From Candidatus Bathyarchaeia archaeon (lineage in GTDB: Archaea; Thermoproteota; Bathyarchaeia; 40CM-2-53-6), in contig JBEKGM010000005.1 of the NCBI GenBank assembly GCA_050012795.1, positions 21,574 through 85,573 of the forward strand: 64,000 nt of DNA. The letters run 5' to 3'. Below, piece by piece: positions 9,390 to 59,196 of the stretch. The position numbers were made by a program, and so were the translations under genes. Below the pieces are notes generated by a model. That model was not told the DNA's origin, made no database searches, and saw nothing but the letters and a program-made list of their open reading frames with translations. Position 1 is the first letter of the stretch. The number at the start of each line of letters is the position of its first letter.

Positions 9390-9980
9390 CTACGGGGATT
9401 TTTCCGCGCGGTACTCTAGTGGGTTCGACTTCACGAAGGCTCTGCCCTTCTCGATTGCGAGAGAGTTGAGTGATAGGAGGCTCTCCTTCTTGCCTGCGAG
9501 GAAGTGCTTCAAAGTTTCTTTCGTCACATCGGCGCCAAGGTTGGGTGTGCACAGTTCGAGAAACGCCCCAAACATCACTGCGTTAGCGAACATCTTGGTG
9601 TCGGTCTTCGATAGGTTCTCGTTGCGTAGGCTCTCCGCGATCTCAGTTGCTGGAATGCCGAAGCTTTCTACGTCGTCGCGTTCTGCATGAGTTTGGATTA
9701 GGGTTTGGTTATAGATGATGAGGCCTCTTGGACGTAGGTCGTTTAGGAAATCCATTGAGGGCTGATTCATTATTAGTTCGACGTCGGGTTCTTCAGCGAT
9801 TGGGTTATCGACGACTTGATCAGAGATTATGACGTAGCATTTCGCTTTGCCGCCTCGAGTTTCCGGACCGTACGATGGGACGTACGCTACGTGCTTGCCC
9901 TGGAGCATTGCAGTGTATGCCATGTAGTCGCCTAGGAGCATGATTCCTTGGCCGCCGTGGCCGGCAATTAGAACCTTCAT
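9390..9980 (-). CDS. 2-oxoacid:ferredoxin oxidoreductase gamma subunit
   Basis: MKVLIAGHGGQGIMLLG...YGPETRGG pattern. ATGA overlap with the beta subunit. Confidence 0.9.
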   Translation of the reverse strand: MKVLIAGHGGQGIMLLGDYMAYTAMLQGKHVAYVPSYGPETRGGKAKCYVIISDQVVDNPIAEEPDVELIMNQPSMDFLNDLRPRGLIIYNQTLIQTHAERDDVESFGIPATEIAESLRNENLSKTDTKMFANAVMFGAFLELCTPNLGADVTKETLKHFLAGKKESLLSLNSLAIEKGRAFVKSNPLEYRAEKSP

Positions 9981-10789
9981 TTTGGTGATGGTTTTTCAAC
10001 TCCGTATGTATCCCGGTAGACGCCTAACGGAAACCGTTTGATCACTTGCTCGTTGACGTAACGTTTCGCTTCAAGCACAGACATCTTCCAATTCACTGAA
10101 CATGTGCTCAGTAATTCTACGAAGGCGAATCCGCCTAGGGCCTGCACCTTGAACGCGTTTTCCACGGCTTTTTTTGCGTCAAGTAGATTCTTTATCGTGT
10201 ATACTTTTCCTCTAGGATTGGAGATCTCGCTCACAACTAAGCTAGCTCGTTTGACGTACGCAGCGCCGTCTATCTGCCCGATTAACTTTGACGCGTCAAG
10301 TTCTGTTCCGGTCAATGCGGGATCACGCCCGTATGGTGTGGTTGTCGTGACCTGACCTAGGAGAGTTGTGGGTGCCATCTGGCCGCCGGTCATTCCGTAG
10401 ATGCCGTTGTTTACGGCGAATATTGTTATTGGCGTTCCCCTCTTAGCCGCGTAGATGGTTTCGGCTAATCCGATGGACAGCGCGTCTCCGTCTCCTTGTA
10501 CTGTGAACACGGTCAGTTCTGGTCTTAGTCGCTTGACTCCAGCGGCTACTGCGGGTGCTCTTCCGTGCGCGGCCACGACATGGTCGCAGTTGAAATAGTT
10601 GTATGCTAGCACGCTACAGCCAACGGAATCTATCATTACAGTCTTCTCCCGTATGTCAAGGTCGTCCATGGCTGCCGCGATGAGTTTTGTGAGTGTCCCA
10701 TGTTCACACCCGGCACAGTAGTGAGTAGGGTTCTCAGTAAGTGACTTGATTTTTCCAACTTTCACTTTCAGAACAGACTGCTCGGTCAT
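9977..10789 (-). CDS. 2-oxoacid:ferredoxin oxidoreductase beta subunit (ThDP-binding)
   Basis: CAGCEHG N-terminal Cys motif and the GDGD ThDP motif. ATGA overlaps on both sides. Confidence 0.9.
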   Translation of the reverse strand: MTEQSVLKVKVGKIKSLTENPTHYCAGCEHGTLTKLIAAAMDDLDIREKTVMIDSVGCSVLAYNYFNCDHVVAAHGRAPAVAAGVKRLRPELTVFTVQGDGDALSIGLAETIYAAKRGTPITIFAVNNGIYGMTGGQMAPTTLLGQVTTTTPYGRDPALTGTELDASKLIGQIDGAAYVKRASLVVSEISNPRGKVYTIKNLLDAKKAVENAFKVQALGGFAFVELLSTCSVNWKMSVLEAKRYVNEQVIKRFPLGVYRDTYGVEKPSPK

Positions 10790-11862
10790 ACGGCAGCTAC
10801 CTCCAGCCTATGGACTTCGCGTTCTATTTCCCGCTCCGTGGGTATGATTCCTCCCCATCTTCCGAGGAAATCAATTGTCACTCCACTACCGACTGCAAGC
10901 CTCACGTCCTCAATCATTTGGCCCGTGTTTAACTCAACGTCGAGAAACCGTTTTCCTTCAGAACTCAGCTTCTGGAGAGCGCGTGATGGGAAGGGCCAGA
11001 GCGTGATTGGTCTGAATAATCCGACTCGGATTCCTTTTTTGCGTAGGGTGTTAACGACGCTTCTAGCAATTCTTGAGACGATTCCGAAGGCGATGATTAC
11101 AACTTCAGCATCTTCAGTGAGATACTCTTCGTAAAGTACCTCTTTCTCTTCTGCCGTTTTATACTTCTTGAAGATCCGGCCAATGTGTTCGTAGTGTTTT
11201 TCATAATCGAGCTCCATGGAGTTTAAAATGTGAGGGCCTCTGCCTTTCGAGTTGCCGACTGCCCATGATGAAACATCATAGTCCTGTGTCTCCCATGTGG
11301 GGAACTCAACGTCCTCTTTCAGCTGGCCGGTGAACGCGTCCCCTAATATGAGGACTGGATTTCGATACTTGAAGGCAAGGTCGAATCCAACTTTTGGAAG
11401 CGTGGCCATCTCTTGTACTGAGGCTGGAGCCAGTACGAATAATCGGTAATTCCCGTGTCCGCCGCCTTTTGTTGCTTGGAAATAGTCGCTTTGTTCAGGT
11501 CCGAGGTTGCCTAATCCTGGTCCCGCGCGACAAATGTCGACGATTAGGAATGGTAGCTCCATGCCGGCTGCGTACGAGAGGCCTTCCTGTTTCAGGCTGA
11601 AGCCGGGACCTGATGTTGCCGTCATAGTGAGGGCTCCGGTTGATGCTGCACCCAGAACCATGCTGATTGCTTCTAGTTCGCTTGATGATTGAATGAAGCA
11701 TTTGTACTTAGGATACTTCTTGTTACCGAACTCTCGGGCGAGGGTTTCCGGGATCTCGCTTGACGGGGTTATCGGGTACGCGAAATACGCGTTCAGTCCG
11801 GATTCTAATGCTCCGTACGCAAGCGCTTCGTTGCCTTTCATGTAGACTTTCTGATTGGGCAT
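10786..11862 (-). CDS. 2-oxoacid:ferredoxin oxidoreductase alpha subunit
   Basis: MKGNEALAYGALESGLNAYFAYPITPSSEI, a typical alpha-subunit N-terminus. Confidence 0.9.
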   Translation of the reverse strand: MPNQKVYMKGNEALAYGALESGLNAYFAYPITPSSEIPETLAREFGNKKYPKYKCFIQSSSELEAISMVLGAASTGALTMTATSGPGFSLKQEGLSYAAGMELPFLIVDICRAGPGLGNLGPEQSDYFQATKGGGHGNYRLFVLAPASVQEMATLPKVGFDLAFKYRNPVLILGDAFTGQLKEDVEFPTWETQDYDVSSWAVGNSKGRGPHILNSMELDYEKHYEHIGRIFKKYKTAEEKEVLYEEYLTEDAEVVIIAFGIVSRIARSVVNTLRKKGIRVGLFRPITLWPFPSRALQKLSSEGKRFLDVELNTGQMIEDVRLAVGSGVTIDFLGRWGGIIPTEREIEREVHRLEVAAV

Positions 11863-12111
11863 CTATGTTTTCGCCTGAACCTCCTGGATGGCATAATCTG
11901 GGCAAACCCAGTAGCAGATTGCGCAGCCTGTACAGGTTCCCTTGGTTCCCTGATACGTGAACTCTACTGGATGGAACCCGGCATGATTCAGTCTAGTCGA
12001 AAACTTCAGATTCCCTGATGGACATGACACAATGCACAACTCGCAACCTTTGCAGCGCTCCTCGAGAATTTTCACGTTGGCTCGTGGCCCTATCGTGGCT
12101 GTCTCGGTCAA
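11863..12111 (-). CDS. 2-oxoacid:ferredoxin oxidoreductase delta subunit (2x[4Fe-4S] ferredoxin)
   Basis: CKGCELCIVSCP and CTGCAICYWVCP motifs. The TTG start overlaps the upstream stop (TTGA). The delta-alpha-beta-gamma order resembles Kor/OorDABC-type clusters. Confidence 0.9.
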   Translation of the reverse strand: MTETATIGPRANVKILEERCKGCELCIVSCPSGNLKFSTRLNHAGFHPVEFTYQGTKGTCTGCAICYWVCPDYAIQEVQAKT

Positions 12112-41959: not shown

Positions 41960-42229
41960 TTGACGCACACTGAGTGGAGATTATTGATCTGCAAAGCGTG
42001 TAATGGTGACGGTGAAGTAAACTGTACGAAATGCAAAGGCAGCGGATCAGTACCAGTAAACTGTGTCGAATGCAAGGGTAAAGGAAAGATCAGTTCTGGC
42101 ACAAGCATGATCGAATGTGATATCTGCAACGGAAGCGGCAAAGTCGACGAGAAGTGCAATGAATGTTTTGGCGGCGGGTTGATTATGTGTGAAGCATGTG
42201 ACGGCACCGGTAGCGTGCCAGACAAATAG
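41960..42229 (+). CDS. stand-alone DnaJ-type cysteine-rich zinc-finger protein (6x CxxCxGxG)
   Basis: CKACNGDG, CTKCKGSG, CVECKGKG, CDICNGSG, CNECFGGG and CEACDGTG within 89 aa. Confidence 0.75.
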   Translation: MTHTEWRLLICKACNGDGEVNCTKCKGSGSVPVNCVECKGKGKISSGTSMIECDICNGSGKVDEKCNECFGGGLIMCEACDGTGSVPDK

Positions 42230-44347: not shown

Positions 44348-46162
44348 TCAAAGCGCCACGTACTGGTCGATCCTCTTTTCGATCATCTTGAGGCTGTCTT
44401 TCCAGAAGTCAGGTTTCTTGATATTTATTGCAAATCGAGAGGCAAGCTCGGCGGGGGTTCCTTCTCCAGTGCTCGCTAGGAGAGATTCATATTCTGAAAC
44501 GAAAGATGCACCCTGCGTCATGTATATCGCATAGAGGCCTAAGCCGAAGAGAAGGCCGAAGGCATAAGGGAAGTTGTAGAAGGATAGTGTCGTACTATAG
44601 TAGTGAGGTTTCCAAGTCCACATGTAACCGTGTAAGCATGCGTCATCTAAGCCGTCACCGTATGTATTTTTCTGTGACTGAATCATTATCTCACAGAACT
44701 CATCAGCGGATAACTCAGACTTCTCACGCCTTTCGAATACTTGTTTCTCGAACAGGAACCTTGAGGTAATATCAACGATAACCTGTGTTGATGACATTAG
44801 TGATGATTCTAGCACGGCGAGTTTCTCATCACTGCTTGAGGCGTTAGCTAGAACCGCGTCAGAGACTATTGTCTCGCAGAAGATTGACGCAGTCTCAGCT
44901 AGAGTCATAGGAGTTCGAGTCTGCAGAACGGTCTTGCCAACTTGGCATTCGTTATGGTATGCATGTCCTAGTTCATGCGCTACAGTTGAGACTGCATCTA
45001 ACGAGCCATCGAAATTGCAAAGAACACGCGACTCATCTACGGCAGGCACTTCCATACAGAACGCTCCTCCCCGTTTTCCATCTCGTGGTTCAGCGTCGAT
45101 CCAGTTATGTTGGAAAGCTCGTTCAGTCAGTTTTGCTAACCGGCCGCTGAAGGTACCGAATTGTTCCACTATGAATTCTCGAGTTTCATCCCATGAGTAA
45201 TGATGATCCACAGTACCCACCGGTGCGAAGAGATCCCACCAAGGGAGCGCATTACAGCCCATGCGTTTCGCTTTTGCTTTGAGGTATCTTCTGAAGCTGG
45301 GAAAGGACTCTTGCATAGTCTCAATCAGTGTGGTAAGAGTCTCTCGATCGATGCGAGCCTGATCAAGTGAAGCGTGTAAAGCGTCTACGCGTCCTCGCCG
45401 TTTCGATAGCGTCACTACAGTCCCTTTCACACCGTTTAAAGCGGCTGCCAGCGGTTCCCGAACAGTCTTCCAGGCCTCTAGTTCCGCTGTATACGCTCGA
45501 CGCCTCACGTCCGGATCTTTATGGTGACTTAGGTTCAAGATTGATGTGATCGGCATTTTTTCTTTCTTCCCGTTTAGTTCGAATTCCACACTCAGCTGGG
45601 AGCAGATTGTCCCTTGGAGTTTAGACCAAGCGTTTCCGCCACTTAGTTCGAGGTCTGCGGCCAGCGATTCTTCTGGTTCACTCATCAGGTAGCGGCTTTG
45701 TTCTAAGACCTCTTTCAGATAGAATGAATGCTCCTTGCTCGGGCCGGGTAAGGCCAGAATATTAGAGAGACCTTCACCCAGACTCCTGGTCCAGCCATGG
45801 AAAAGTACGTCAATTTTCTTGACCCGGGTTTGAATTATCTCAAATTCTGATTCTGCACGTTTCGCAGAAGCATTGTACGAGTCGGTAGTCACAAAGGAGG
45901 CTACGAACGCGCTAATGGTGCTGAGGAGGCGTAGCAGAGAGTTCATGCGAGTTATGTATTCGTCGGCAATCTCTTTCAGCAGAGAGGTCTCGAGAGGGGA
46001 TAGCCCGGATTCGGTCCTTCCGATTCTATACTGGGTACAGTAAGCTTCGAGTTCAGCAATCTGTCCCTTGAGACTCTCAATGGCTGTTCTGAACTGTTCC
46101 GATTCCAAACTTGGATAAACATTGGATAGGTCCCAGTGCGGCAGCGATTCAGCTTTAATCAT
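44348..46162 (-). CDS. pepF: oligoendopeptidase F (M3B metallopeptidase)
   Basis: HELGHAYH zinc motif; 604 aa with an M3B-like layout. Confidence 0.9.
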   Translation of the reverse strand: MIKAESLPHWDLSNVYPSLESEQFRTAIESLKGQIAELEAYCTQYRIGRTESGLSPLETSLLKEIADEYITRMNSLLRLLSTISAFVASFVTTDSYNASAKRAESEFEIIQTRVKKIDVLFHGWTRSLGEGLSNILALPGPSKEHSFYLKEVLEQSRYLMSEPEESLAADLELSGGNAWSKLQGTICSQLSVEFELNGKKEKMPITSILNLSHHKDPDVRRRAYTAELEAWKTVREPLAAALNGVKGTVVTLSKRRGRVDALHASLDQARIDRETLTTLIETMQESFPSFRRYLKAKAKRMGCNALPWWDLFAPVGTVDHHYSWDETREFIVEQFGTFSGRLAKLTERAFQHNWIDAEPRDGKRGGAFCMEVPAVDESRVLCNFDGSLDAVSTVAHELGHAYHNECQVGKTVLQTRTPMTLAETASIFCETIVSDAVLANASSSDEKLAVLESSLMSSTQVIVDITSRFLFEKQVFERREKSELSADEFCEIMIQSQKNTYGDGLDDACLHGYMWTWKPHYYSTTLSFYNFPYAFGLLFGLGLYAIYMTQGASFVSEYESLLASTGEGTPAELASRFAINIKKPDFWKDSLKMIEKRIDQYVAL

Positions 46163-46231
46163 TATTCAACACGGTTTGCAGCAGCAGAGCTATCTGAAGT
46201 CCGGATTCTCATTCCTGTCTACTTCAGGATT

Positions 46232-46360
46232 TCATCCGTTGCTCATACAGATACCCATCATTATTGGCGAGCAGTGCGCACAGACATTGTAAGGTCCTGC
46301 ACTGCAGGATCCGCACCTTATACAGCGGGCATCGCAATTACGTGTCCCTTCAGAGGTCAT
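46232..46360 (-). CDS. putative Cys-rich microprotein (42 aa), paralog of the ORF at 57528-57716
   Basis: MTSEGTRNCDARCIRCGSCSAGPYNVCAHCSP... The motif CxRCxxCxAxPYxxCxHC is shared position-for-position with the second locus. It starts 16 nt after the nitroreductase stop. Confidence 0.35.
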   Translation of the reverse strand: MTSEGTRNCDARCIRCGSCSAGPYNVCAHCSPIMMGICMSNG

Positions 46361-46376
46361 GCTCACATCATCTCCA

Positions 46377-46913
46377 TCAATCAGTCTGCGGAAAATCACC
46401 GCTAAAGAGATCTTCAAGTGCTCTCCTCCCGGACGGAGGAGGCTCTTCGGCCGCGTAACCTAAAGAAAACATAACCACGGGTCGACCTGCCTTGTCGCCG
46501 ACAATTCCACGCACCGCGTCTTCATCAAAATCACCCACCCAAACGGTTGACAGCCCGAGGTCCACGGCTGCCAACATTGCAAATGACCCGGCTATGGTAG
46601 CATCCTGCACACTGTACAGTTCCCGCCCTCGGACACCATACTTGGGCTCGGTACGCGATGGATCAGTACAGAAAACGAGACAAACGGGTGCCTCTTCAAT
46701 GAAGCTCTGACCATGCGCGGCCTTCGCGAGGACTTCGCGCTTCGACTTTTCTCGAAAAACGTACACGTGATAAGCTTGTAAGTTGCCCGCGGAAGGGGCG
46801 AGGTTCGCAGCCTCAAATATCCTCCGTAGCTTATCCTCCTCGACTGGCTGCGGCTTGTAGGAGCGAACTGAGCGCCGCCGCTGTAACACGTTGAAGAACT
46901 CCATCATACTCAC
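46377..46913 (-). CDS. nitroreductase family protein
   Basis: RRSVRSY...LAPSAGNLQ pattern; 178 aa. Confidence 0.85.
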   Translation of the reverse strand: MSMMEFFNVLQRRRSVRSYKPQPVEEDKLRRIFEAANLAPSAGNLQAYHVYVFREKSKREVLAKAAHGQSFIEEAPVCLVFCTDPSRTEPKYGVRGRELYSVQDATIAGSFAMLAAVDLGLSTVWVGDFDEDAVRGIVGDKAGRPVVMFSLGYAAEEPPPSGRRALEDLFSGDFPQTD

Positions 46914-57019: not shown

Positions 57020-57460
57020 TCACGAAGATTCAGCTATTTGAGGGGCGAATCGAGCCGCCCAAGACACGATTTTCGTGCAGCGTTCCAAGTGAACCCGTGC
57101 TTGGTATGCTGCTCTACCCTCCTCCGTCTTCAGGTCCAACCCTGTAAGCTCACGACATTTGCATGTACCAAATTCCTTGACGAAAGCTGAGTAGAACCGG
57201 TCCACCGCCCTGTAACATCGATCACGACTCTCTTCAGCAGAATTTCGTCCCACAGCTAATCCGATTCGCATAATTCCGCCGGTTAATGCTCCGCACACGT
57301 CGCCATTTCTGCTCAGACCACCACCAAAACCCGTAGCAACTCTTGGAATGACAGTTTCGACCTTGCCAAGTAACACATCTTGAGTGGTGGCAAGTAGGAC
57401 AGCCTCCGCGCAGTTGTACCCAGAATTGAACAGACGCGTCGCGTTATTCTCAGGAGTCAT
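57020..57460 (-). CDS. C_GCAxxG_C_C family protein
   Basis: GYNCAEAVLLA, CGALTGG and the C-terminal Cys pair CKC...C. Confidence 0.8.
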   Translation of the reverse strand: MTPENNATRLFNSGYNCAEAVLLATTQDVLLGKVETVIPRVATGFGGGLSRNGDVCGALTGGIMRIGLAVGRNSAEESRDRCYRAVDRFYSAFVKEFGTCKCRELTGLDLKTEEGRAAYQARVHLERCTKIVSWAARFAPQIAESS

Positions 57461-57527: not shown

Positions 57528-57716
57528 CTACCGCAAGTCGAGGTCACAATGTACACATGGCCTGTATGGGCTCGCTCCACATCGCGTGCAACGTTCACAA
57601 ATCTTGTTCAAGTATGTATAGCAACCGCAGCAGCGTAAATCCAATTCGCTTCCAGCGTCAAGTGAGAAGTTAGAGATGCCGTGCAGATCAGAAACCATTT
57701 CCATTTCACTACTCAC
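57528..57716 (-). CDS. putative Cys-rich microprotein (up to 62 aa), paralog of the ORF at 46232-46360
   Basis: ...RCCGCYTYLNKICERCTRCGASPYRPCVHCDLDLR. It shares CxRCxxCxAxPYxxCxHC with the other locus and sits in an intergenic gap between two minus-strand genes. Confidence 0.45.
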   Translation of the reverse strand: MSSEMEMVSDLHGISNFSLDAGSELDLRCCGCYTYLNKICERCTRCGASPYRPCVHCDLDLR

Positions 57717-57905
57717 CTCTATTCACCTCCATTCAACTGTCACTAAGTAGGAAGTAGTTATACACGAATTTAGGTCAGGGAATCGAATAACATTGAACCT
57801 TATCGTTGGAAGCGCCGTCTGCGCCGCGTTCATGATACTCCCAACACACTGGAATGTCAACTTATCATGTGATAAAGCCTTCTCATCCTGAGGACCCAAA
57901 TCAGC

Positions 57906-58805
57906 CTACGTTATTAAGGCAATCAAGAAACCTGCGCCAAGCAGCAGAATAGTCAACAGAATCATGACCACGTTCAGCCCTAGCGCAGGCACTAAGTTCG
58001 ACGTGTTTTCATATTCTTTCATCACGATGCAAGAGGCTTTGTAAGCAATCGGAAGTGTGAGTAAGGCTACTAGGACGCTTGCTGGGACAAGTCCAAAGAG
58101 AACGGAGCAAACGATCGAGATATATGTTGCAGCGGTTGCAATCACATACAACACTGCGGCGCGCCGCTGACCCAAAAGTATCACTAAATGTTTCCTTCCA
58201 CCGAGTCTATCGGCCTCGACATCTGGAAATTCATTAAGGAAAAGTAACAGACCGACTAGTATTGTGACAGGAATGAAAATAGCTAAGGCGACACAATCCA
58301 CATTCCCAGTCTGCGTGACGTAAACCCCGAGACCCATGACTCCGAAACCAGATCCAGCAACGATCTCACTCAGTGCATGAATTCTCGAAATAATCGGTGT
58401 ATAAAATACGATGGCAATTGTTCCATAGACGACCAAGGGCAAAAGAACGAAAAAGAAGAGCGTGAGAAAGTAAACACCGATTGCCCCTGCAACAGCGAGA
58501 CACATGATGGCGACCAGTAACGCAGAGGAACCCTTCATCTTTCCCTTTACGAGGACCTCTACGCCTCCACTGAACGGGGTCTTCACAGTTCTGGAATCAA
58601 TCAATGATTTATAATCGAAATAATTATTGAAGGCGTTCACGGAGGCATGCAACAACAAAGCCGCGAAAAGAACCACAACCGCGTTAACGACGCTGAAGGT
58701 TCTATGAGAATAGAAAGCTGCAGACAGGTTCGTTACAACAATCACGACAGTGAGCGGAAGAAAATTGGCCCGAGTGATTGATATCAGGTTGTTCAAGACA
58801 ATCAC
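57906..58805 (-). CDS. UbiA-family aromatic/isoprenoid prenyltransferase
   Basis: About 9 TM segments; Asp-rich motifs NNYFDYKSLID and NEFPDVEADRLGGRKHL. Confidence 0.85.
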   Translation of the reverse strand: MIVLNNLISITRANFLPLTVVIVVTNLSAAFYSHRTFSVVNAVVVLFAALLLHASVNAFNNYFDYKSLIDSRTVKTPFSGGVEVLVKGKMKGSSALLVAIMCLAVAGAIGVYFLTLFFFVLLPLVVYGTIAIVFYTPIISRIHALSEIVAGSGFGVMGLGVYVTQTGNVDCVALAIFIPVTILVGLLLFLNEFPDVEADRLGGRKHLVILLGQRRAAVLYVIATAATYISIVCSVLFGLVPASVLVALLTLPIAYKASCIVMKEYENTSNLVPALGLNVVMILLTILLLGAGFLIALIT

Positions 58806-59067: not shown

Positions 59068-59196
59068 ATGAAATGCCCTAGATGCGGAAAATCAATTTGG
59101 GAGATTGGGAATATTCACATGCCTGACAGAACGATGAAGATGTTGAACCTGCGAATAATCAGATGTACATCCTGCAGTTACACGTCTGAATGGTAG
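59068..59196 (+). CDS. putative zinc-ribbon microprotein (42 aa)
   Basis: My translation: MKCPRCGKSIWEIGNIHMPDRTMKMLNLRIIRCTSCSYTSEW*. It has CPRCG...CTSC, lies in an intergenic gap, and is below the ORF-track size cut-off. Confidence 0.35.
   Translation: MKCPRCGKSIWEIGNIHMPDRTMKMLNLRIIRCTSCSYTSEW

Follow-up and report, generated by a model that had tools for sequence, protein, structure and literature searches.

A family of small cysteine-rich, putatively metal-binding proteins in Bathyarchaeia, with two paralogous genes in a single genomic window

The 64 kb stretch of a Candidatus Bathyarchaeia genome described here (contig JBEKGM010000005.1; the whole stretch is referred to below as the window) contains, on its minus strand, two short open reading frames (ORFs), copy A and copy B, which on the conservation of their sequences are genuine protein-coding genes and represent two paralogues, types A1 and B, of a single family. 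This family is known from Bathyarchaeia archaea, had not been annotated before and, as judged from the sequences gathered here, consists of at least four paralogous subtypes of 42-62 residues. What would such small proteins do, and which metal would they bind? The reading that is favoured here, with a probability of about 0.6, is that they are real paralogous metal-binding microproteins, each of which would serve as a partner or regulator of the adjoining gene or of its product. Small archaeal proteins built on cysteine knuckles are a known kind, and for the present family no model, solved structure or literature was found.

Two paralogous genes and their wider family

Copy B spans positions 57528-57716 and encodes 62 amino acids between a GTG start and a TAG stop (translation VSSEMEMVSDLHGISNFSLDAGSELDLRCCGCYTYLNKICERCTRCGASPYRPCVHCDLDLR, with RCCGCYTYLNKICERCTRCGASPYRPCVHCDLDLR as its C-terminus), and copy A, at 46232-46360, encodes 42 amino acids between an ATG start and a TGA stop (MTSEGTRNCDARCIRCGSCSAGPYNVCAHCSPIMMGICMSNG). 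An earlier note on this DNA had described an ungapped alignment between the two over 19 residues with 10 identities, and BLASTP reproduces it (E = 4e-6 in a single comparison), the identical residues being five Cys together with R, A, P, Y and H. The motif common to both copies is C-x-R-C-x2-C-x-A-x-P-Y-x2-C-x-H-C. Its strict form (C.RC..C.A.PY..C.HC) occurs exactly twice when the window is translated in all six frames, and so do several looser versions. The two copies do lie, as the same note had stated, in short intergenic gaps on the minus strand: copy A between a nitroreductase gene (46377-46913) and the gene for an M3 oligopeptidase (oligopeptidase F, PepF; 44348-46162), and copy B between the genes for a UbiA prenyltransferase (57906-58805) and a C_GCAxxG_C_C protein (57020-57460).

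Copy B has orthologues in six predicted metagenome proteins with 72-84% identity, and type B loci number 13 in metagenomes. The ratio of nonsynonymous to synonymous change (dN/dS, by the Nei-Gojobori method) is 0.07-0.3, mostly 0.12-0.2, and for residues 28-62 it is about 0.05-0.1, with a dN of about 0.03-0.07 against a dS of 0.4 to more than 1; constraint on the N-terminal 27 residues is only weak. The first codon is either GTG or ATG, at an unchanged position among the orthologues. In the window it is preceded at a distance of 6 nt by the Shine-Dalgarno site GGAGGTGA (57723-57730, minus strand), which stands at the same distance from the type B start in 13 of 14 upstream sequences and is represented by GGAGGCGA in the remaining one, L044. 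An ORF antisense to copy B is open in many orthologues, diverges faster and runs into stops in L058.

Orthologues of copy A were obtained solely through a degenerate pattern scan of DNA, and a word-index protein search with copy A alone gave no match. The 21 type A1 loci, which comprise 20 distinct nucleotide sequences, have a median dN/dS of 0.19 and Cys codons that vary synonymously, and within them R7, C9, C13, C16, C19, P23, Y24, C27, H29, C30 and C38 are invariant. The Shine-Dalgarno-like sequence GGAGATGAT (46367-46375, minus strand) stands directly behind the nitroreductase stop codon (46377-46379) and is separated by 6 nt from the ATG of copy A, and either GGAGGTGA or GGAGATGA is present ahead of most A1 starts, with weaker variants in a few. 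A longer reading of copy A from a TTG (to 46417) overlaps the nitroreductase gene. This TTG is not the conserved start, since the orthologues begin no more than two codons away from the ATG at 46360.

The scan that revealed the extent of the family was carried out on metagenome contigs of the Joint Genome Institute (JGI) with the pattern TGY N6 TGY N6 TGY N9 CCN TAY N6 TGY N3 CAY TGY. It returned 113 matches, of which 89 are family members (35 of type C, 21 of A1, 20 of A2 and 13 of B), the other 24 being chance or unclassified matches with in-frame stops in 17 of them. Type A1, to which copy A belongs, has the consensus ..TRNCDARCxRCGxCGAGPYNVCxHCSPxMMxICMSNG and a length of about 42 residues; type A2, with 42 residues, reads MDLQERECSGDRCPQCxxCGALPYQACAHCSxEMMNxCLSNG; type B, that of copy B, reads ...RCCSCYTYLNKICERCSRCGASPYRPCVHCDLDLR and has about 62 residues; and type C, with about 43-46 residues, reads ..IGRCAECRDxYGxDxCxxCTICGxxPYxxCxHCPPSxxLGG. 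Purifying selection is also evident in A2 and C (dN/dS 0.21 each). The subtypes are linked to one another by profile-profile comparison with probabilities of 95-99%, values that come from a sequence set gathered with the motif, yet profile searches also found members that have no P-Y.

How could such a family have escaped annotation? Among 5.8 billion clustered predicted proteins, no more than 15 are picked up with a profile built on the whole family, against 89 loci in the JGI contigs alone, and it follows that gene callers nearly always miss it, as the earlier note had suspected. With a profile made of copy B-type sequences and copy A there were 7 matches among 1.84 billion representatives, one of which is repeat junk, and profile searches of predicted proteins found no larger protein in which the family domain is fused to another. 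A scan of viral contigs gave one match, apparently the same chance match (a 7,666-bp contig) that is listed as L107 among the metagenome matches. Two sequences carry bacterial labels: in L124 (NCBI GCA_035517955.1, labelled Candidatus Acidoferrales) a family member is accompanied by an archaeal TFX regulator and an archaeal-type oxidoreductase operon, and the protein P0016 (labelled Methylomirabilota) is a copy A-type sequence. Since family loci elsewhere bear archaeal hallmark genes such as Alba and TFX, both contigs have probably been mis-binned in their assignment to bacterial metagenome-assembled genomes (MAGs).

The idea that the two frames are chance ORFs, or stretches of conserved non-coding DNA that happen to be open, draws on nothing but their small size and unannotated status. 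Set against it are dN/dS values well below 1, synonymous variation at invariant Cys codons, and conserved start codons and ribosome-binding sites, and it is refuted by the dN/dS values and the 89 family loci. What had been put forward as a family of microproteins has in this way gained six protein orthologues of copy B and a large set of metagenome loci; further homologues exist, purifying selection acts on the frame in all of the subtypes, and the starts have conserved Shine-Dalgarno sites before them.

Eight candidate ligands and the likely metal

Throughout 73 family sequences the residues C32, C40, C43, C46, C54, H56 and C57 (in the numbering of copy B) are invariant, and P50 and Y51 vary hardly at all, which gives a core of the form [C-x2-]C-x7-C-x2-C-x2-C-G-x2-P-Y-x2-C-x-H-C with six invariant Cys and one invariant His. 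The eighth ligand is a further Cys whose place depends upon the subtype. In types B and C it is found three residues before C32, so forming a CxxC knuckle, and in type A, where there is no extra N-terminal Cys, an invariant Cys is found eight residues after the last Cys of the core. In copy B the cysteine-rich domain takes up residues 28-62 (57531-57635, minus strand), with C29, C32, C40, C43, C46, C54, H56 and C57 as the putative ligands. That the ligand count is held at eight (Cys7His) despite the moved Cys is the strongest argument that the sequences offer for two four-coordinate metal sites, and the most likely arrangement would be two tetrahedral sites, one Zn(Cys)4 and one Zn(Cys)3His. 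Both copies depart from the consensus of their subtype at a conserved position: the residue that follows the third core Cys, a Gly in at least 90% of A-type sequences, is Ser in copy A (residue 20, 46301-46303), and copy B has Gly as its residue 31 (57624-57626), which is Ser in most orthologues (RCCSC).

Zinc appears to be a more likely metal than an iron-sulfur cluster because of the CxxCG and CxHC knuckles, the invariant His and the dehydrogenase-like spacing, and also because the weak profile matches are of zinc-ribbon type and subtype A2 is tied to a non-redox enzyme, acetyl-CoA synthetase. The competing view is that a [4Fe-4S] or [3Fe-4S] cluster is held by the C-x2-C-x2-C triad of the core together with a remote Cys, in which case the proteins would be mini-ferredoxins or redox sensors for neighbouring redox enzymes. 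Small ferredoxins of these kinds are indeed like the family in having the triad, in belonging to anaerobes and in adjoining ferredoxin-dependent enzymes. The type C sequence has a Pro behind its last Cys (HCPPS), which recalls the C-P of ferredoxins, and its gene always lies behind 2-oxoacid:ferredoxin oxidoreductase genes, with copy A likewise behind a nitroreductase and copy B ahead of a putative redox-active C_GCAxxG_C_C protein. However, the fourth Cys follows at a spacing of seven residues and not in the x3-C-P manner of ferredoxins, the proteins are too short for the ferredoxin fold, and the sole match to a Fer4 profile is that of copy A to Fer4_2 at E = 7.1, with none among the weak matches that recur. 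An invariant His and eight ligands also suit two mononuclear sites better than they do one cubane, and the enzyme to which A2 is tied is not a redox enzyme. Even with type C, the operons of gamma-delta-alpha-beta order already encode a delta ferredoxin subunit, and those of alpha-beta-gamma order adjoin a separate Fer4 protein gene on the opposite strand. An iron-sulfur protein is an unlikely alternative to zinc, though a serious one in view of the triad and the oxidoreductase context.

Comparison with known families gives a similar picture. Scans of both copies and of the 73 family members against Pfam and NCBIfam produced no significant match. The weak Pfam matches that recur are to zinc-ribbon families, chiefly DZR (PF12773) in 11 of the 73 members (best E 0.013); none of the 73 reaches the DZR gathering threshold, and copies A and B have no DZR match. 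The family resembles zinc ribbons in its short length and paired Cys knuckles and, with respect to DZR, in its two putative metal sites, whereas zinc ribbons do not typically have a contiguous C-x2-C-x2-C triad or a C-x-H-C knuckle.

A second likeness is to the structural-zinc lobe of the medium-chain dehydrogenase/reductase (MDR) alcohol and polyol dehydrogenases, where the spacing C-x2-C-x2-C-x7-C is identical to that of the family core (C40, C43, C46 and C54 in copy B; C13, C16, C19 and C27 in copy A; invariant in the 73 sequences). In horse liver alcohol dehydrogenase, for instance, the Cys of the structural zinc are Cys97, 100, 103 and 111. The loop itself also looks alike, reading CRFCDECKSGHYNLCPH in the xylitol dehydrogenase 7y9p and CIRCGSCSAGPYNVCAHC in copy A. 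Yet the MDR lobe is a loop within an enzyme of about 350 residues and holds one zinc, whereas the family members are free-standing peptides with four further ligands. A sequence search of the PDB with the family profile gave non-significant matches only, and one with a profile of A-type sequences alone gave no match. As the dehydrogenase match has E = 1.7 and was not recovered by the A-type profile, the likeness is to be taken as a lead and not as a demonstrated relationship.

In their general build the proteins also recall the C(P)XCG zinc-finger micro-proteins of haloarchaea (HVO_2753, HVO_0758 and Brz of Halobacterium salinarum), which stand alone, have fewer than 70 residues and are constructed from Cys knuckles (PMC6562870, PMC10716476, PMC11241148). 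With 42-62 residues the family falls within the size range used for such micro-proteins (up to 70 residues). The haloarchaeal proteins, though, have a pair of C(P)XCG motifs with four ligands, whereas the present family comes from Bathyarchaeia and has a single CxxCG (CTRCG in copy B; CGSCS in copy A), its other knuckles being CxxC or CxHC, and eight ligands that include a His. The family gave no significant match to the NCBIfam models NF041909 (HVO_2753) and NF041910 (HVO_0416), the latter reaching a best E of 0.016 in 3 of the 73 members, and the HVO_2753 model matched only an unrelated third mini-ORF of the window, which is described below.

Neighbouring genes and candidate partners

The subtypes differ in the genes next to which they are found. 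Type A1 lies about 14 nt behind nitroreductase and ahead of PepF and then RtcB. Type B lies between UbiA and C_GCAxxG_C_C, and this order of UbiA, small ORF and C_GCAxxG_C_C is kept among the copy B orthologues. In 16 of 17 loci type A2 precedes the gene of an AMP-forming acetyl-CoA synthetase by about 40 nt, with genes upstream of A2 that vary, and the conservation of a TATA-like TTTTAGTTT box about 30 nt before its ATG suggests that it may be transcribed from a promoter of its own, with a very short leader. Type C comes last, behind the genes of a 2-oxoacid:ferredoxin oxidoreductase, which occur in two orders (gamma-delta-alpha-beta-C and alpha-beta-gamma-C), and in most of its loci the gene that comes next is on the opposite strand. 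Since the links of A2 and C persist while their surroundings change, synteny alone is unlikely to explain them.

The window contains no type C or A2 copy. It does have a 2-oxoacid:ferredoxin oxidoreductase operon (9390-12111, minus strand) of four genes, with delta first (82 aa, of 2x[4Fe-4S] type, 11863-12111) and then alpha, beta and gamma; this enzyme is 24-35% identical to those linked with type C, has no microprotein behind it and is a distant paralogue. The five-subunit oxidoreductase of Aquificae was considered as a precedent for type C and rejected, since its extra subunit is an unrelated 21-28 kDa protein that resembles the epsilon subunit of carbon monoxide dehydrogenase (PMC10052474).

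It is this gene context, together with C-terminal tails specific to each subtype, that suggests a role as partner or regulator. A metal-stabilised core would carry a subtype-specific tail (CMSNG in A, HCPPSxxLGG in C and HCDLDLR in B), and each paralogue would be a small partner, accessory or regulatory, to the neighbouring gene's product or to its expression. Copy A might in this way belong with the nitroreductase or oligopeptidase F and copy B with the C_GCAxxG_C_C redox protein or with UbiA, and for the other subtypes the candidates would be acetyl-CoA synthetase (A2) and the 2-oxoacid:ferredoxin oxidoreductase (C). The pairs of A2 with acetyl-CoA synthetase and of B with C_GCAxxG_C_C are laid out like Brz, a small zinc-finger protein whose gene is directly upstream of, and co-oriented with, the gene that it regulates (PMC2253796).

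The position of the genes also lends itself to a different explanation, namely that they are regulatory upstream ORFs, or leader peptides, in which the act of translation and not the product controls the gene downstream. Thus A1, A2 and B are each 40-70 nt upstream of a co-directional gene, and A2, which has a conserved TATA-like box to itself, comes as first cistron ahead of acetyl-CoA synthetase. This would not, however, account for the same residue pattern across paralogues in unrelated contexts, which points to selection on the product, nor for type C, which is the last gene of its operon and is followed in most loci by a gene on the opposite strand; leader peptides are accordingly seen as very unlikely. 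Less probable again is that the proteins are precursors of ribosomally synthesised and post-translationally modified peptides, in which a radical S-adenosylmethionine (SAM) enzyme would cross-link the Cys-rich core, as in SCIFF/ranthipeptides and the methanogen TIGR04165 peptides. They are short and Cys-rich, and type B does have a weakly constrained N-terminal part of 27 residues followed by a conserved Cys-rich part, but types A and C have nearly no leader before the core, the four subtypes adjoin unrelated housekeeping enzymes and the NCBIfam precursor models match no family member at E <= 1. Nor is there an adjacent radical SAM enzyme or other maturase among the annotated recurring neighbour clusters, which comprise oxidoreductase subunits, acetyl-CoA synthetase, nitroreductase, PepF, RtcB, UbiA, C_GCAxxG_C_C, a methyltransferase and PrpD.

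The region ahead of copy B has features of its own. The intergenic leader (57717-57905, minus strand) is nearly as conserved as the coding region, and an alignment of 11 orthologous upstream regions defines within it a conserved non-coding part at 57805-57881 (minus strand). This consists of a box resembling a B recognition element and TATA sequence, AAGGCTTTATCA, at 57870-57881 and an invariant hairpin, GTTGG...CCAAC, at 57805-57845 with an inner GCGC/GCGC stem. The leader could be a cis-regulatory RNA. RNAalifold predicts 11 pairs in stems that are invariant, with no compensatory changes, and the structure is therefore neither supported nor refuted; Rfam and tRNA scans of the window found nothing. 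The same region contains an upstream ORF of 36 codons (57723-57833, minus strand; MNAAQTALPTIRF...VEWR), the TGA of which falls inside the Shine-Dalgarno site of copy B. In most orthologues it stays open over 32-39 codons, and in L044 a T-to-C change abolishes its stop and fuses it to copy B. As a coding sequence it was rejected, neither its frame nor its amino-acid sequence being conserved among the orthologues.

Several observations weigh against the view that these are metal-binding partners of their neighbours. Metal binding is predicted from the ligand pattern, and transcription and translation of the genes from their sequences. According to its title, one study saw no zinc binding in several haloarchaeal proteins for which zinc fingers are predicted (PMC11241148). 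The best matches of the family profile in the PDB, which are non-significant, are to a RanBP2-type finger (2k1p, E = 0.37) and to the structural-zinc region of xylitol and ketose reductases (E = 1.7 and 3.8), and the dehydrogenase and RanBP2-finger similarities imply different ligand topologies. The RanBP2-type pattern itself, W-x-C-x2-4-C-x3-N-x6-C-x2-C, is absent from the family, which has no conserved Trp and in type A is without the first Cys. AlphaFold2 models made with 16 sequences have a mean predicted local distance difference test score (pLDDT) of 54 for copy B and 62 for copy A, and a Foldseek comparison of the copy A model with the PDB gave no match; with scores so low and no structural match, neither the fold nor the assignment of ligands to sites is established. 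The conserved neighbourhoods of A1 and B could simply reflect close kinship of the sampled genomes, and the four subtype contexts have no obvious biochemistry in common. Finally, copy A is deleted from the closest genome, L007 (Bathyarchaeota MAG contig CAWJRR010000022.1), and in L001 the copy B orthologue is frame-broken by a 1-nt insertion with the downstream sequence kept, such that neither gene is demonstrably essential.

With regard to L007, blastn and pairwise alignment define a 185-bp segment (46191-46375) that is absent there and that includes the whole of copy A and its ribosome-binding site. The flanks of the deletion are intact (96.6% amino-acid identity for the nitroreductase, 92.6% for the peptidase), and the nitroreductase stop abuts the peptidase start at about 1903-1905 of L007; a flanking FAD-oxidase gene is 93% identical to its match in L007 and 79% to that in a second Bathyarchaeia MAG. 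Since 20 other A1 loci retain the gene behind the 3' end of nitroreductase, L007 has most likely lost it. Neither terminal repeats nor a target duplication are visible at the junctions of the segment, and an origin from a mobile element was rejected, given these junctions and a gene that is in place in many relatives. In L001 (10001-10190; ENA ERZ25039512 contig_40114) the sequence is CGCAGGTG where relatives have CGCGGTG, and the codons downstream are preserved. The name of this contig suggests a long-read assembly, and the single-base insertion thus looks like either an assembly error or a very recent lesion, an assembly error being more probable than a pseudogene.

Other small features and biological meaning

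The third, unrelated mini-ORF lies at 59068-59196 on the plus strand and encodes 42 amino acids of zinc-ribbon type with CPRCG and CTSC knuckles (MKCPRCGKS...RCTSCSYTSEW). The earlier note had already picked it out as a zinc-ribbon mini-ORF, and it proves to be conserved and under selection, with 71-93% amino-acid identity in L007, L001, L058, L005 and L083 and a dN/dS of 0.04-0.17, from which it is a real conserved gene. It is absent from the called genes of L001, has only weak zinc-ribbon matches in Pfam and matches TIGR04165 at E = 0.28. At 41960-42229, on the plus strand, an ORF of 89 amino acids is composed of nearly nothing but CxxCxGxG repeats (CKACNGDG, CTKCKGSG, CVECKGKG, CDICNGSG, CNECFGGG and CEACDGTG), which resemble the cysteine-rich zinc-finger region of DnaJ and here form a stand-alone small protein.

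In sediments, peat and soils, Bathyarchaeia belong to the most abundant of the uncultured archaea, and their carbon metabolism, which runs through pyruvate, acetyl-CoA and acetate, has been inferred largely from gene annotations. Branches of the family that are linked to 2-oxoacid:ferredoxin oxidoreductase and to acetyl-CoA synthetase may therefore represent parts that are missing from the account of these pathways, as candidate small subunits or regulators. The recovery of the family also means that six-frame motif scans of raw DNA can bring to light real small genes that protein databases do not hold. In addition, a Cys7His pattern in which the eighth ligand appears to have shifted from the N-terminal to the C-terminal side would provide a compact system in which to follow how a small metal-binding fold evolves.

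A bolder proposal, which is speculative and on present evidence improbable, is that central-metabolism enzymes of Bathyarchaeia have in this family small subunits or dedicated regulators that were not recognised before, with type C as an extra subunit or assembly factor of the oxidoreductase and A2 as a partner of acetyl-CoA synthetase. If true, copies A and B would be sister adaptors, the one for nitroreductase/PepF and the other for the C_GCAxxG_C_C protein, and the acetyl-CoA node of an uncultured archaeal lineage that is abundant worldwide would be under metal-dependent control, which might sense redox state or zinc.

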